DNA of 30,945 bases, from the IMG/VR virus record IMGVR_UViG_2802429246_000009. The stretch is one strand, 5' to 3'. The stretch is from a virus (taxonomy: Duplodnaviria > Heunggongvirae > Uroviricota > Caudoviricetes). Position 1 is the first letter of the stretch. Each line of letters opens with the position of its first letter. The notes under the pieces are model-generated. The model made no database searches, had not been told where the DNA came from, and was given only the letters and a program-made list of their open reading frames with translations. Made by a program: the position numbers and the translations under genes. This document shows positions 6,605-24,570 of this stretch, one piece after another.

Positions 6605-6708
6605 CCGTTTAACTCCGTGGTTAATGGGTGAGTGGTATTTTCAGTTGTACAGGGCGTGAGACGCTATTTGTCCTGACTGGTCAGGGGATGAAACAACAGA
6701 TAAAGAAA

Positions 6709-6729
6709 AGGCGGGCAATCCGCCCGCCT
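6709..6729 (-). terminator. putative rho-independent terminator downstream of G (end of V-G operon)
   Basis: Inverted repeat aggcggg / cccgcct with a 7-nt loop, followed on the minus strand by TTTTCTTTAT; sits 5 nt after the G stop. Confidence 0.5.
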
Positions 6730-6733
6730 GTAT

Positions 6734-7264
6734 TTATTGTGGTAGTTCCGGCCATTCAGGATTTGCAGGATCCACACGACTGACCAGAACGCTGTAGCGT
6801 TCCCATGCCTCCAGTCGGCTGCGCTCCTCATCTGTTGCCATATTCAGCCTGACCGCACGCTCCAGCGGCTGAATCAATGCCTCAGCTTCTGCAAGCAAGG
6901 TTGACTTTCGGACTTCGGCTTGCTGCTGCCGTTCTGCATCCGTATATACACGTTTAATTACAGTGTCATCTTTGAACATCCAGTTACCTGAAATATCAGC
7001 GCGACGGTTGGCGGTTATATTCGGTAACTCAACAACACTCAAGCCATCAGGGTTGAGCATTGACACATCTTTCTCAATGCAACGAATAATACCGTTCTCG
7101 TCGTAGGCCATTTTTAAAGTGTCTGGCTGGAAATTCTTTTGTTCCTCATACCAGTTTTTACCATCATCTGACCATAGCCAGACAATATTAAATCGTTTGG
7201 TTAATTCATATTGTTCAATAGTTTTTGGATTCCCTGCCTTAATATTTTTTAAATGCATCATCAT
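6734..7264 (-). CDS. G: tail fibre assembly protein gpG
   Basis: 176 aa immediately downstream of the tail fibre gene; start overlaps the H stop. Confidence 0.85.
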
Positions 7265-9786
7265 TAAATACTCCCTGCGTTATACCATGTGCCATTAATA
7301 CAATACTGAACAGGTCTTGCCTGCGCGATATCAATTAATTCATCAGTATTACTATTGACAACACCAGTAAGAACATGCCCTGACCTGTCATGCCAGCCAG
7401 TACCATTCCACGTTGGAAGGGATGACAAACCACCTAAGCGAATACCTGTAATAAAACGTGAATTACATTCCGCCTTGGTATAAGCGCCAATATCACCTGG
7501 CGATGGTTTATGAGCTGTCGTATAAATTTGCGCCCATCCAGACCATTGAGCATCATCTGTATCCCGCCTTGAACGGATATATGCTGGCGCGTAACCTCCA
7601 CTGGTGCCGCTCCAGCCGATAAGTAATTCACCTTCTCCAACTGCGGACACCCCCGTAAGATGAAGCACATTGCCATAGGTGTAAGGGTAGCCATTGTTAT
7701 ATGCCTCATACATCTGAATACCAGGCGTCCCCTTTGCACTCCCGCTTAATGCTGTGACGCGATTCCGGGATACCAGCGTATTAATATTTATATCGCCGGT
7801 GCCATCAAATTTGACACCATTAATATTTCGTGCCGTTTTCAGCTTTGTAGCTGTAGCAGCATTGCCGGACAGTTCGCCTGAAAGACCGGCGCTGAAGGTT
7901 TGTTTCGCCGCCCATGTCTGAGCTTCGTCGATAATTGGCACACGTCTTGTCGTGATCGTGCGGCTTCCCGGATTTCCTGAAATACGCACCATAAAAAAGC
8001 GGTAGTTCGCTTTACTTACAGTGCTGCGCCACACATGCATTGAGCGCCCCGTACCGGAATCATCACTCGGACCGACTGAGATGTTTATCAGGTTGCCATC
8101 AATGACGCCCCAGTCCATACCGTCGGGAATATTGGCCATGTTATCAAGCCGAACGGTTATCAGACTACCCGGCACAAAGTCGTAGGTCTGCCAGTCCAGA
8201 CTGGATAATTTTGCCACTGCGCCACCGATGCCCAGATTCAGAGGCAACGAAAAGGAGTTATATACTTCTCGCCATTCGGTCCATTTGCTCCCGGCGTAGA
8301 CGCGCTCAAAAGTGCGCCCCTGTGTGGTTTCTGATTTCCCTGTGGTTGTGTAACGCTGCCAGACAGACACACCATCAAAACGTCTGATTACTTCCAGTAT
8401 CCCAAGTAGTGTCGCGCCAACGGTGTCCAGCATCGGACCGTTTGTTGCCTTTCCTGTAACACTGTAAATACCGGGGTCGGTTAGAACATTTAAATCACCT
8501 TCGTAATAACGACTCTCTGACTGATGACCGACTCTTAACCACGGTTCCCACTGCGGATTTGATGCATCCCAGCTTGCCGCAAGGCAGCGGACATACATAT
8601 TTCCACGGCGAGTGGTATAACGTTGCGTTCTTCCATAATTCCCGCCTTCGAGGATCTCAAGCATCCCCTGAGCAAAGCCGCCTTCCTCTGGATAATTGCG
8701 TTCATAGGAAGCTATAGCCGAGCTACTGTTACGCCATAAACCAAGATGTTCGGCGGCTCCAAGCGTATTCAGGTCTATAGTCGTACTCAAAGGGCGGGTA
8801 GCTGATTGAGTGTGACGCCATACGCCCCACGGACCATCAGTGCCATTCCACTTATTGGCGAGTTTACGCATGTATACATTGCCGTCTCTTGTGGTAAAGC
8901 GTTGCGTGCCTGCAAAATTGCCGGCAGCAAAAACCTCAAGCACACCGACAGCATTATCTTCCGGGAAATTTTTCTCCAGTGTTGCGTTAGTTGAAGTAGC
9001 TTTAGACCAGATCCCCAGATAAGCCTTAACGGGACCAAATGTATTCAGATCAGCATCAACCGGCATTTCGCCGTTGTTTTTCATAAACGTCAGGCTGGTA
9101 ACGCCAACATTGTCCAGAAAAGCTGATTTATCCTGGATATCTGCACCATTCTGATTTTTCGCCAGACGTGAATTTGCGTTGTCATTTGCTGCCTTGACCG
9201 CTTTTGGCGTTGCCGCCAGCTTTTCACTGGTGCTGTTTGTTGCACTGCTTAACTGAGTAAAGCCTTTTTCCGTCAGCGTGGCGTCAGGATGGCGGCGGGA
9301 CTGCTCATGCTCTGCGATTTTGTCATCGACGTAATCCTGCGTCGCCATCACTGTGCTGGCATCAATACTCAGCTCAACGGACGCCACGTTGCTGAGAATA
9401 ATAACCATGCGGCAGGTCTGCGCACGTCCGGAGCCTTCAGCCAGTTCTGGCTTATAGCTTTCTGCCATGTTGGATACCGCAATCAGTGTTCCGGCATCGT
9501 CATACAGACCAAGCTCACGCATCCAGAAGCCGCCCACTTCGGGCGGTACAACCAGTTCAGCCACGATATAGTTTTTATTCTTGTTATCCACGCTGACTTT
9601 ATTCAGAGCGTGACGCCAGACCTCATGCACCAGTTTCGTCTGACCGGCATCCGGCACCGGTAATTTGCCATTACCGTCACCCACGGCCATTGCAGACAGG
9701 TTTACTTTTTTCCCGCCGGGGACAGTGGCGGCTGCCAGCTTCGCGGCTCCGGCAGTAGTGATAACGGTTTTAAATTTCGTGCTCAT
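7264..9786 (-). CDS. H: tail fibre protein gpH (extended, repeat-containing C-terminal region)
   Basis: 840 aa; N-terminus [40 protein letters not shown]... matches my recollection of P2 H; longer than P2 H (about 669 aa as I recall), with three tandem internal repeats. Confidence 0.85.
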
Positions 9787-9796
9787 TGTTTCTCAC

Positions 9797-10327
9797 TTAT
9801 CCGGGATAAACAGTAATAACATCACCATCACAGACCACACCGCCTGTATACAGATAGCCGGGAATGTCCTGGATAATGTTCAGGCCGATAAGGTGACGAC
9901 TTGCGGGTTTGGCATCAGCAATCAGCCGTTCCATTTCCAGATACATCTCCTCCGTGATGCCGCTTTCCAGCACACCGATATCAAGGCGAAAGGTTCCGGG
10001 CGGGTCGTTTGTCTCCCACCATTCCTTTACGTTAATGAGATAGCCGAGCGGCTCCACCACGCGTCGGATTGCGCCGATAGTGCCTTTATGACAGTGGATG
10101 AAATAGGCATCGCGGATAACGGCGCGTTTTGTTGCTTCCGGCCACTTTTCATCCCACCTGTCGACCGAAAACGCCCACGCCAGCCACGGCAGCAGATTTG
10201 CCGGACAGGTATCCGGGTTCCACAGCTCACGAATACTGACCGGCGTTTTTTCAATTTCCGCACAGGCTTTTGCAGCGGCGACCTCAAGTGGTGATGAGCC
10301 GGTCGGCAGCAGTCGCGAATCACTCAT
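9797..10327 (-). CDS. I: baseplate assembly protein gpI
   Basis: 176 aa, between J and H as in P2. Confidence 0.88.
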   Translation of the reverse strand: MSDSRLLPTGSSPLEVAAAKACAEIEKTPVSIRELWNPDTCPANLLPWLAWAFSVDRWDEKWPEATKRAVIRDAYFIHCHKGTIGAIRRVVEPLGYLINVKEWWETNDPPGTFRLDIGVLESGITEEMYLEMERLIADAKPASRHLIGLNIIQDIPGYLYTGGVVCDGDVITVYPG

Positions 10328-21777: not shown

Positions 21778-21836
21778 TTGACAATCCCATGATTTTTTAG
21801 AGCAAGCTTGCATTCCATACTGTCAAAACACATTAT
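21778..21836 (+). promoter_or_regulatory. putative sigma70-like promoter of the cargo operon
   Basis: TTGACA at 21778..21783 and TTGCAT (21808..21813) with a 17-nt spacer to CATTAT (21831..21836), about 30 nt upstream of the RBS; weak match, position uncertain. Confidence 0.3.
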
Positions 21837-21867
21837 ATACTTGGGCTTTTTATACAAGGACTTAAAC

Positions 21868-23568
21868 ATGTTAACAAAATTCTCAGGAAAAAATTACAAA
21901 GCATTTAAGGATTTCTCGTTCGAGATTAAGCCTATAACGGTGTTATTAGGAGCAAATAGCTGTGGAAAAAGCGCACTTATCAATTCACTTTTGATGTTTT
22001 CACAAACAGCAGAAACAATAAACATTTCCGAATCAGCACTAAGATTAAATGGAAATAAGGTTGGCATGGGGGAATCTCTGAATATCATCAGAGAAAAAAA
22101 CCCCAAAAACACCTTAAGTTTTTCATTTGAAATATCAAACCAACAATCCTTGCGATACGACATTCACAAAAGCAAGCGAGATTTTATTGACTTCTATTTT
22201 TCACTTGCCAGATATTTGGGACAAGTATTAAAAAGTGCGGCATCAACAACACCCAGCAGTGATTTGATGAACAATAGTTTTAATGACACGTTAAAAACTA
22301 TTGATAAAATCGAATCAAACTATATGTTTAGAGACACTTACAACTCTGCACAACTTAAAGCCATTTCTGATGGTGTTTGCGAATTATTATCAAAATACAG
22401 ACAACTACCTGAGGATGTTGCAAAAAAATCCCGTCCACATCTCGATCGACTAGCAGAGTTTGTTAATATTGTTTCTTTCGAAAACATTCAAAGCAGCTTA
22501 ATGTCATTAGCATCTCTTAGTGCAAAAAAAATATCCCCCAAACGAATTGATTATGATTTTTGCTTTGATAAAAAATCAAACCAACTAAAAATAACCGGGT
22601 GCGCTTTTCATAATCACTTAGGCGAATGCATCACCAGCTTGGGTATATCTAAAGGGAAATTCTTTTTACGCTCTGACGTTATTAAAAGAACTCACTTAAG
22701 CAAATCCCGAGAAGAGATATCGAAACTAATCAATTTCAATTCACTATCCCTTATAGATGAAATTCAAAACGTTAATTTCATTGACAAACACATTGTGTCC
22801 CTTGACCCATTCGCTAGTTTATTCTGCAACTATCTTGAGAAGCTAACAAAAGCATTTATCTCTGAGTTTAATGGTGTAAAAATAAATCATGTCAGCCCAT
22901 TAAGGGCATTCCCTCAACGCTACTATCTTTTAGACAAGTCTATACAGCATACTTTTCTTAATGTTCTGGAAGGTAATGAACTGGCTGAGGTGTTAAAGAA
23001 AAATCCAGAAATAAAAAATAAAATTAATATTTTACTGGCAAAGTTCAATCTTGAAGTAGATGTCGTCATGGTTAATGACATCATTCATAAGATCAACATC
23101 ACCCAAGATTCCATCTCTCTAGAGTTAACAGATGTAGGTTTTGGCATATCTCAGGTTTTACCTATTTTGGTTCAAGCTTATTTGTCCCCTAAAAATTCCA
23201 TCACTATTATAGAACAACCAGAAATTCACTTACACCCCAAAATGCAAGCATGGCTCACTGATGCTTTAATTCACATTGCATTAAAAGAGAAAAAAAGATT
23301 TATTATTGAAACTCACAGTGACGCTCTAATCAGAAGAATCAGATTGCGTATTGTTGATACTAAATCGAGCCTTACACCAAATGATGTAATGCTTTGCAAT
23401 CTTGAAAGAAAATCTGAAGATAATGTCACTAGTTTAAAAGTGATTCCTATTACCGAGGATGGAGATATAACTTGGCCTGCGGATTTTTTAGACATTGAAA
23501 TTCAAGACACACTTCAAATCCAGAATTTTAAAGTTAAAAAACATCTTAAAAATAAAGGTCTGTTATAA
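21868..23568 (+). CDS. ABC-type (OLD/AAA_15/AAA_21-like) ATPase, candidate defence ATPase; no TOPRIM domain
   Basis: 566 aa from ATG 21868 (AAGGA RBS 7 nt upstream; the ORF-track start at 21808 is TTG). Walker A GANSCGKS about 21949..21972; signature-like LTDVGFGISQVLPIL; Walker B/D-loop ITIIEQPEIHLHP about 23200..23238; H-loop FIIETHSD. Only about 70 aa follow the H-loop. Confidence 0.8.
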   Translation: MLTKFSGKNYKAFKDFSFEIKPITVLLGANSCGKSALINSLLMFSQTAETINISESALRLNGNKVGMGESLNIIREKNPKNTLSFSFEISNQQSLRYDIHKSKRDFIDFYFSLARYLGQVLKSAASTTPSSDLMNNSFNDTLKTIDKIESNYMFRDTYNSAQLKAISDGVCELLSKYRQLPEDVAKKSRPHLDRLAEFVNIVSFENIQSSLMSLASLSAKKISPKRIDYDFCFDKKSNQLKITGCAFHNHLGECITSLGISKGKFFLRSDVIKRTHLSKSREEISKLINFNSLSLIDEIQNVNFIDKHIVSLDPFASLFCNYLEKLTKAFISEFNGVKINHVSPLRAFPQRYYLLDKSIQHTFLNVLEGNELAEVLKKNPEIKNKINILLAKFNLEVDVVMVNDIIHKINITQDSISLELTDVGFGISQVLPILVQAYLSPKNSITIIEQPEIHLHPKMQAWLTDALIHIALKEKKRFIIETHSDALIRRIRLRIVDTKSSLTPNDVMLCNLERKSEDNVTSLKVIPITEDGDITWPADFLDIEIQDTLQIQNFKVKKHLKNKGLL

Positions 23569-24570
23569 ATGTTTTACACTCATTGTATAAGCCCTGAATT
23601 CATGGGGCTTCACATCAAAAATATGGACACTTTTATTTCGATTTTTATGGGTGTTTTAATGAATCCGCAGAACCAGATCGTTTTAGATGAGGCAGGAATA
23701 ATTGAACAACAATATTTATTAAGTCTTAATAACGACAAATCAGCTTTTTTGCTCTACCAAACTTGGGAGAAAGCCATAAAATCAGACAGTTGCCAAGGTA
23801 AACTATTACTTTCTTCTCCCAATATATCATCTTCAATACATGATTATGTAGTTTCAGCTATTTCATGTGCTATAACCACAAACGACAAAACAATATTAAC
23901 TGCTGATAACAATTTGTACAGCGCGGCTTTACCTATTTTATCCAGACAAAAAATTCACTTACTGGGAATAAGTCATCTAACCCCTCAATCATCAGCAAGC
24001 ATTATAGGTAAACATATGTCTTTTACAAAACTTGATTATGATATTGCCTGGTCTCTAGAGAGATTGGTTCGGCTTCATCGAAAAGGGAACACAGAGGATG
24101 ACTTAAATGACTTACTCCGTGAATACTTGCTTGCGAAGGAATACGAGATAAAAGACCAAACTCGTGAAGGCATATCTACAAGTGGAAAGAGCGCCGGAGA
24201 ACTTGATATTATTGTTGAGCACAACTCAAACATGTTTGCAATATTAGAAGCAATGAAGCTTAGTCAGATAAACAAGGAGTATATCACCATTCATTACAAA
24301 AAAATGCTTGTCAATTACAACCCTCTGGACGTAAAGAGATTATTCCTCATTACTTATTACGATGGAAAAAAATTCGATACCTGGTGGGATAACTACGTTG
24401 AATTTGTAAAAAGTATAGACTACACCACATTAAACCCTGAAGTCGAAAACACAACATTTGTTAACACAGAAAAGATTAACACGAACTTTGGGAATGTAAA
24501 AAAAATGCTACACCACGGCCTGGCTAATGGTGAACAATTTTCCGTCATACATTATGCAGTAAAACTGTAA
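23569..24570 (+). CDS. hypothetical protein, partner of the ATPase (possible effector/nuclease; unassigned)
   Basis: 333 aa; ATG immediately follows the gene-1 TAA (TAAATG), AAAGG about 10 nt upstream; AT-rich codon usage like gene 1. Start codon choice is uncertain (other in-frame Met at residues 12, 19, 27, 31). Confidence 0.7.
   Translation: MFYTHCISPEFMGLHIKNMDTFISIFMGVLMNPQNQIVLDEAGIIEQQYLLSLNNDKSAFLLYQTWEKAIKSDSCQGKLLLSSPNISSSIHDYVVSAISCAITTNDKTILTADNNLYSAALPILSRQKIHLLGISHLTPQSSASIIGKHMSFTKLDYDIAWSLERLVRLHRKGNTEDDLNDLLREYLLAKEYEIKDQTREGISTSGKSAGELDIIVEHNSNMFAILEAMKLSQINKEYITIHYKKMLVNYNPLDVKRLFLITYYDGKKFDTWWDNYVEFVKSIDYTTLNPEVENTTFVNTEKINTNFGNVKKMLHHGLANGEQFSVIHYAVKL

Follow-up and report, generated by a model that had tools for sequence, protein, structure and literature searches.

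Three knob domains and a Mu S'-like tip in the mosaic tail fibre H of a P2-like Escherichia prophage

Why is the tail fibre of a P2-like prophage 171 residues longer than that of phage P2? The question is raised by gene H in a window of 30,945 nucleotides, the whole stretch of DNA that was analysed. This window is a complete P2-like (Peduovirus) prophage of Escherichia: across 85% of its first 25 kb it is ~95% identical to Peduovirus genomes, and the genes for the portal, replication gene A, cox, the repressor and the integrase were recognised. A preliminary description of the DNA gave the lengths of the two fibre proteins, correctly, as 840 and about 669 aa (P2 H, NP_046775.1, has 669 aa; NC_001895 12734-14743) and attributed the difference to repeat expansion in the fibre shaft, which together with a replaced distal region would alter host range. 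H has gene I on one side and the Tfa gene G on the other, within the V-W-J-I-H-G gene order of the operon, and the I-H spacing of 10 nt is that of P2.

7264..9786, minus strand: tail fibre gene H, 840 aa (ORF list; Pfam PF12571 and PF03406; PHROG tail fibre families)
9797-10327: gene I homologue, upstream of H (Pfam Tail_P2_I match)
6734..7264, minus strand: gene G, tail fibre assembly protein (Tfa), 176 aa (PF02413, Caudo_TAP, E 7e-35; 75% identical to P2 G)

RefSeq already contains this 840-aa protein in identical form as WP_105266114.1, whose 90%-identity cluster contains 32 sequences. E. coli PEC41 carries the H-G pair at 99.9% identity, and a match covering 80% or more of the pair was found in 104 of 5,426 complete E. 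coli genomes. With a probability of about 0.85, we consider H to be a mosaic P2-family fibre of at least four blocks, in which three knob domains form beads in the shaft and an S'-like tip provides specificity. The repeats, their fold class, the sharing of the module and the positions of the junctions are demonstrated by the comparisons below.

Three tandem repeats of about 85-90 aa had been proposed for H, and their existence is confirmed at the protein level by BLASTP, hhalign, profile searches and fold. Their proposed coordinates hold exactly, with the first base of aa 245 at nt 9054 and the last base of aa 510 at nt 8257 on the minus strand, and the units are connected by linkers of 9-10 aa.

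8806..9054, minus strand: knob 1, aa 245-327 (profile score 116.7 bits; AF2 pLDDT ~80-86, five main strands)
8527..8778, minus strand: knob 2, aa 337-420 (profile score 104.7 bits; AF2 pLDDT ~73-80)
8260..8496, minus strand: knob 3, aa 431-509 (diverged copy; varies more among homologues than knobs 1 and 2)

The DLN(T/V)(F/L) openings are present as DLNTF (246), DLNTL (338) and DLNVL (431). Two further motifs had been described for all units and were recovered with exceptions: a tryptophan motif is found at the unit openings, but the first motif of unit 3 (GIYSV) is devoid of tryptophan, and the core of the GTQR motif is present, but unit 2 reads RTQR. The third copy is indeed diverged, with WQRYTTTGK...GRTFERVY as its central motif. 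Whole-protein self-BLASTP of H returned the identity match alone, and the units were then compared one by one. Units 1 and 2 (aa 246-323 and 338-416) share 44% identity over 80 aa (BLASTP E 2e-24) and are aligned by hhalign with a probability of 99.8% (E 2.5e-29); the identity between the other pairs of units is ~20-30%. Tandem Repeats Finder detected nothing in the DNA, and a second DNA repeat search (find_repeats) yielded only a single 22-nt in-register match. Thus, the repeat exists at the protein level only.

The three units are "knob" domains, as they occur in R-type pyocin fibres, in the receptor-binding proteins of staphylococcal phages and in T4 gp34. A knob is a sheet of antiparallel strands, five or six in number, whose loops point outward, and it often occurs in tandem (PMC6116203). 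In an AF2 monomer model of aa 226-668, the pLDDT is 75-86 across aa 235-509, and the three units, arranged in tandem within gpH, each display the antiparallel β-sheet expected for a knob of ~80-90 residues, with five main strands at matching positions in all three. In a Foldseek comparison with the PDB, the model matches the R1 pyocin fibre (6CL5) best; next come the receptor-binding proteins of the staphylococcal phages phi812, P68, Phi11 and 80alpha. The recorded fold matches, each with its value, are largely proteins listed as "Knob" carriers by Buth et al. 2018 (PMC6116203).

9EUF, phi812 receptor-binding protein: 10.4
6CU2, R2 pyocin fibre: 9.8
6EU4, AS12 tailspike: 9.3
5EFV, Phi11 host-recognition device: 9.0
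6CL6, R2 pyocin fibre: 8.8
5M9F, phage K gp144: 7.6
5NXH, T4 gp34: 7.1

Pfam coverage of H is limited to aa 1-211, with no match for aa 234-840, and NCBIfam returned no family for H or for any single unit, even at E 10. As no model in the Pfam and NCBIfam copies searched recognises the knob region, the assignment rests on the fold comparison, on our own profiles and on the names of NCBI homologues: near-identical fragments are named "pyocin knob domain-containing protein" by NCBI, and one member of the 90%-identity cluster of WP_105266114.1 carries the same name. The R1 and R2 pyocin fibres (6CL5, 6CL6, 6CU2; PMC6116203) contain two tandem knobs, Knob1 and Knob2, whereas H contains three, and the sequence identity between pyocin knobs and H knobs is only ~16-18%. 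The parts that follow the knobs also differ, with an iron-containing shaft and a lectin foot in the pyocin, and a T-even gp37-like module and a Mu S'-like tip in H. We found no description of knobs in T2/T6 gp37 or P2-like H in the library of papers searched.

The N-terminal part of H is of the P2 type and comprises two features.

9334..9786, minus strand: N-terminal tail-collar fibre domain, aa 1-151 (PF12571, E 3.4e-57)
9088..9288, minus strand: conserved fibre-repeat/linker stretch, aa 167-233 (PF03406 repeat at aa 170-211, E 3.7e-21)

BLASTP revealed 84% identity between aa 1-207 and P2 H, in agreement with the earlier statement that the N-terminal 200 aa look P2-like. In the identity profile against P2 H, the similarity ends at ~aa 207, and the first mosaic junction thus falls within the aa 167-233 stretch, which is also common to Mu S (aa 110-176; phmmer against PDB 8JU3/5YVQ). 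The first recombination junction is located at about aa 207-226. H therefore has the N-terminal tail-collar fibre domain and the gene order of a P2-type gpH, but it is not collinear with P2 H over its full length: BLASTP detected no similarity to P2 H from aa 208 to ~743, and past aa 207 only the last ~100 aa of H align with P2 H, at 29% identity. P2 H in turn is found in the same gene order and with the same type of Tfa partner, and its last ~100 aa are distantly related to those of H; it differs from H by having no knob domains and by the absence of similarity from its aa 208 to ~570.

Downstream of this junction, H enters a module that is shared with the distal long tail fibre protein gp37 of T-even phages.

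7819-9111, minus strand: whole shared module, aa 226-656 (three knobs and ~145 further residues)
7819..8259, minus strand: module remainder, aa 510-656 (its most conserved part, with 81-86% mean pairwise identity)

H 226-656 is 56% identical to T6 gp37 105-531 (YP_010067397.1; BLASTP E 2e-171); for gp37 of Salmonella phage Lv5cm the value is 52%. In translation, the three-repeat region has matches in 227 phage records, 194 of which are below 60% identity; those sampled are mostly T-even gp37. Besides P24E6b and phage 899, most phage records with a match cover 80% or more of this region. The knobs of T6 gp37 are the same three in the same order. Units 1, 2 and 3 of H are 68, 72 and 42% identical to their T6 counterparts, against 29-41% for the other positions. 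Each unit of H is therefore closest to its positional counterpart in T6, which indicates that the triplication predates the split between the P2-like and the T-even versions of the module. Together with the absence of a repeat in the DNA, this makes the triplication ancient. For aa 510-668 the AF2 monomer model has a pLDDT below 50, and about a quarter of the shared module is thus without an assigned fold.

In T6 gp37 the module lies near the N-terminus, after the gp36-binding end, whereas in H a P2-type N-terminus precedes it and a Mu S'-like C-terminus takes the place of the gp37 needle. The gp36-binding N-terminus, the distal part of gp37 and the gp38 adhesin of T2/T6 are all absent, and instead of gp38 the gene downstream of H encodes a Tfa that belongs to the P2 G/Mu U family. 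A conserved motif of ~39 aa, at H aa 630-668 (window 7783-7899) and T6 gp37 aa 63-101, is 62% identical between the two proteins; in H it is found downstream of the three-knob module, in T6 gp37 upstream, and a role as a recombination linker is plausible.

The closest relatives of H are found in other P2-like phages. Over codons 1-656, the H DNA is 95-97% identical in Peduovirus P24E6b, in the Escherichia phages D8 and 12W and in the Yersinia phages vB_YpM_50 and vB_YpM_22, which have the same I-H-G context, and the three-repeat region is 98.5-99.2% identical at the protein level in P24E6b and the Yersinia phages vB_YpM_50 and vB_YpM_476B. After aa 656, however, the five fibres compared at the DNA level diverge from H.

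7267..7818, minus strand: distal region, aa 657-840 (differs from the nearest P2-like relatives)
7267..7581, minus strand: receptor-binding tip, assigned by homology, aa 736-840 (71% identical to the C-terminus of Mu S', BLASTP)

The second mosaic junction is located at aa 656 (nt 7818/7819), where the 97% identity in Megablast stops at query nt 1968. The identity to P24E6b H, a protein of 919 aa, drops from 90-100% to 13-46% after ~aa 656-660 and stays at this low level over the distal 180 aa. In a tblastn search with aa 657-840, the stretch from aa 657 to ~757 resembles the fibres of P1 (Sv'), SSU5 and Ro157c2 (51-75%), and matches to Mu, D108 and SfMu were also obtained. The Mu protein concerned, S', is the G(-) fibre. 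Tip residues 736-840 match PDB 8JU3 385-488 with an E-value of 1.5e-44 (phmmer).

The Tfa protein G shows a corresponding pattern. Its aa 1-100 are closest to Mu U' (74-82% identity), whereas aa 101-176 have their nearest matches in P2 G and Mu U (68-92%, versus 28-42% for U'), such that the C-terminal half of Mu U' is unlike that of G. By these identities, G is a chimera itself. The DNA from 6914 to 7529, which spans the H tip and the 5' half of G, aligns without interruption (75% identity) to the Mu S'/U' junction; a dip in GC content to 0.30-0.46 coincides with it. In Tfa proteins the N-domain binds the fibre tip, while the conserved C-domain drives trimerisation (PMC9608196). Because the N-domain is the tip-binding one, the tip of H and the N-domain of G appear to have been inherited together; the uninterrupted DNA alignment likewise suggests a joint acquisition. 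H and G thus combine S'-type tip homology with a cognate U'-type partner, as in fibres of the Mu/P1 type. Different from Mu S'/U' (8JU3, 5YVQ), which have an invertible segment with an alternative tip, neither an invertible segment nor a second tip/Tfa or a Gin/Cin invertase is present here: only 130 nt lie between the end of G (6734) and the start of the sheath gene FI (6604), too little to accommodate another tip, another Tfa or an invertase. The same interval (window 6605-6733) is a variable slot, occupied by Z/fun in P2 and by an additional ORF in P24E6b, and empty here.

For P2-like phages in general, the C-terminal fibre residues set the host range (PMC5285337). The idea of an altered host range is better attached to the junction at aa 656 and the Mu S'-like tip, and not to repeat expansion. 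The host-range determinants of P88 in the same study concern the other tip of the invertible P88 fibre and bear on the general point only.

We propose the following organisation of the fibre. The P2-type N-terminal domain (block 1, aa 1 to ~207) would dock the trimer to the baseplate. It is followed by a mid-fibre module of ~430 aa, borrowed from or shared with T2/T6-type gp37 (block 2, aa 226-656), by a P1 S'/SSU5-like stretch (block 3, aa 657 to ~735) and by the Mu S'-like receptor-binding tip (block 4, aa 736-840), which would fold with the help of the Tfa protein G. In pyocins, the knob sheets of the three chains pack around the three-fold axis and form hydrophobic cores both between chains and within them; the sheets lie buried at the trimer interface, and a folding role has been proposed (PMC6116203). 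Each knob of H is an antiparallel β-sheet of ~85 residues with five or six strands and with its loops outside, and by analogy, in the trimeric fibre, the three sheets would pack around the axis, giving three successive globular beads at the start of the shaft module. These beads likely nucleate or lock the trimer register and add a defined length and stiffness, as the pyocin structures suggest. Column entropy is lower in predicted strands than in non-strand positions (0.52 versus 0.75 bits, Mann-Whitney p 0.0013), and this stronger conservation of the strands would lend indirect support to trimeric sheet packing. The variable loops may contribute a weak secondary saccharide binding, while the primary host specificity would be set by the S'-like tip, as its homology to Mu indicates.

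Two other accounts of the repeats themselves have to be weighed against this proposal. Unit 3 could resemble units 1 and 2 by chance or be an unrelated domain, leaving two true repeats, and its pairwise BLASTP matches to units 1 and 2 are indeed not significant (E 0.07-0.12). However, an HMM of units 1 and 2 built from nine homologues finds unit 3 in register (E ~4e-5), hhalign does so with a probability of 81% (E 1e-5), and a knob profile of 144 domains aligns it end to end (18.3 bits, E 1.1e-7). This profile was derived from a search of 1.84 billion representative proteins; every domain that showed BLASTP similarity to unit 3 was left out, and the remaining ones were aligned to a model of units 1 and 2 only. 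With profile, profile-profile and fold evidence all agreeing that unit 3 belongs to this family and is in register with the other units, we give a fibre of only two true repeats almost no credence. The second account is the one from which we started, in which a recent expansion of shaft repeats lengthened a P2-type H and, together with the new distal end, altered the host range. The greater length of H and the general variability of knob copy number among fibres speak for it: in 148 cluster representatives, in which the median start-to-start spacing of the knobs is 99 aa, one knob was counted in 53 fibres, two in 48, three in 39, four in 6, and five and six in one each. This variation, however, lies between distant fibres and not within the H lineage, since the same three units are present in the P2-like relatives examined (P24E6b and phage 899) and in the T-even gp37s examined. 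P2 H offers no knob that could have been expanded (knob-profile E 0.8-1.3), the units of H are at most 44% identical to each other, and each of them is nearer to its T6 gp37 counterpart than to its neighbours in H. Neither Tandem Repeats Finder nor the repeat search revealed a tandem repeat in the DNA, and a recent duplication of units is rejected on this ground. The 171 additional residues arise because the portion beyond aa ~207, 462 aa in P2, has been replaced wholesale by 633 aa, not because a P2 repeat was expanded. The claim of a replaced distal region hence stands, as H is not collinear with P2 H beyond aa 207, while the claim of repeat expansion does not. We regard recent expansion as highly improbable, and H as an ordinary mosaic tail fibre.

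A further alternative accepts the knobs and concerns their function: they could act independently as receptor-binding, lectin-like sites. Folds of this class have been linked to saccharide binding, which was shown for the K1F beta-prism, and the pyocin Knob2 is the most diverse region of its fibre and thought to bind LPS (PMC6116203). In line with this idea, the knobs, particularly knob 3, vary more than the flanking shaft (69-79% mean pairwise identity versus 81-86% for the flanks), the variation is concentrated outside the predicted strands, and the H protein of phage 899 differs from H mostly in knobs 2 and 3, which are 53-76% identical as compared to 86-96% just downstream. On the other hand, this excess variability is of modest size and could stem from a relaxation of constraint or from recombination, not from selection. 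The module is also 230-600 residues away from the tip and belongs to proximal gp37, far from the tip, in T-even phages, and it is paired with many different tips (PF21446, PF12604, PF07484 and PF03335 C-termini), as fits a generic shaft element. We therefore consider independent receptor-binding knobs possible but unlikely, and favour their role as structural beads in a mosaic shaft. A more specific version, in which the three-knob module is a portable secondary adhesin whose loops, above all those of knob 3, bind enterobacterial surface glycans, is speculative and in our view rather improbable. If it were true, the exchange of the module between P2-like prophages, which are temperate, and the virulent T-even phages would spread glycan binding independently of the tip.

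The knob family, its tandem arrangement and the exchange of fibre modules between P2, Mu, P1 and T-even phages are already established. The present analysis provides a residue-level domain map for a common Escherichia prophage fibre, with its baseplate domain, three knobs, shaft module and Mu S'-like tip. Such a map will aid the design of chimeric fibres and retargeted tailocins, as it indicates points at which modules can be swapped without cutting domains. It also corrects the reading of the extra length relative to P2 as a recent expansion, a correction with little import beyond annotation.

A genuine duplication of knobs at the level of the module was encountered elsewhere. Fibre P0150, a protein of 1300 aa with no similarity to the P2-type N-terminus of H, contains the three-knob block twice, at aa 217-480 and 721-987.

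Outside the tail genes, the prophage carries a cassette of two genes with low GC content (33-36%) at window 21808-24570 (plus strand), between the portal gene Q and replication gene A, which is the old/tin position in P2. Its first ORF encodes a 586-aa AAA_15/AAA_21 ATPase with PADLOC matches to NsnB (2.7e-52), PDC-M55A, HEC-03B and AriA (1.4e-27), and its second ORF encodes 333 aa and gave neither a Pfam nor a PADLOC match. This AAA cassette is probably anti-phage defence cargo.
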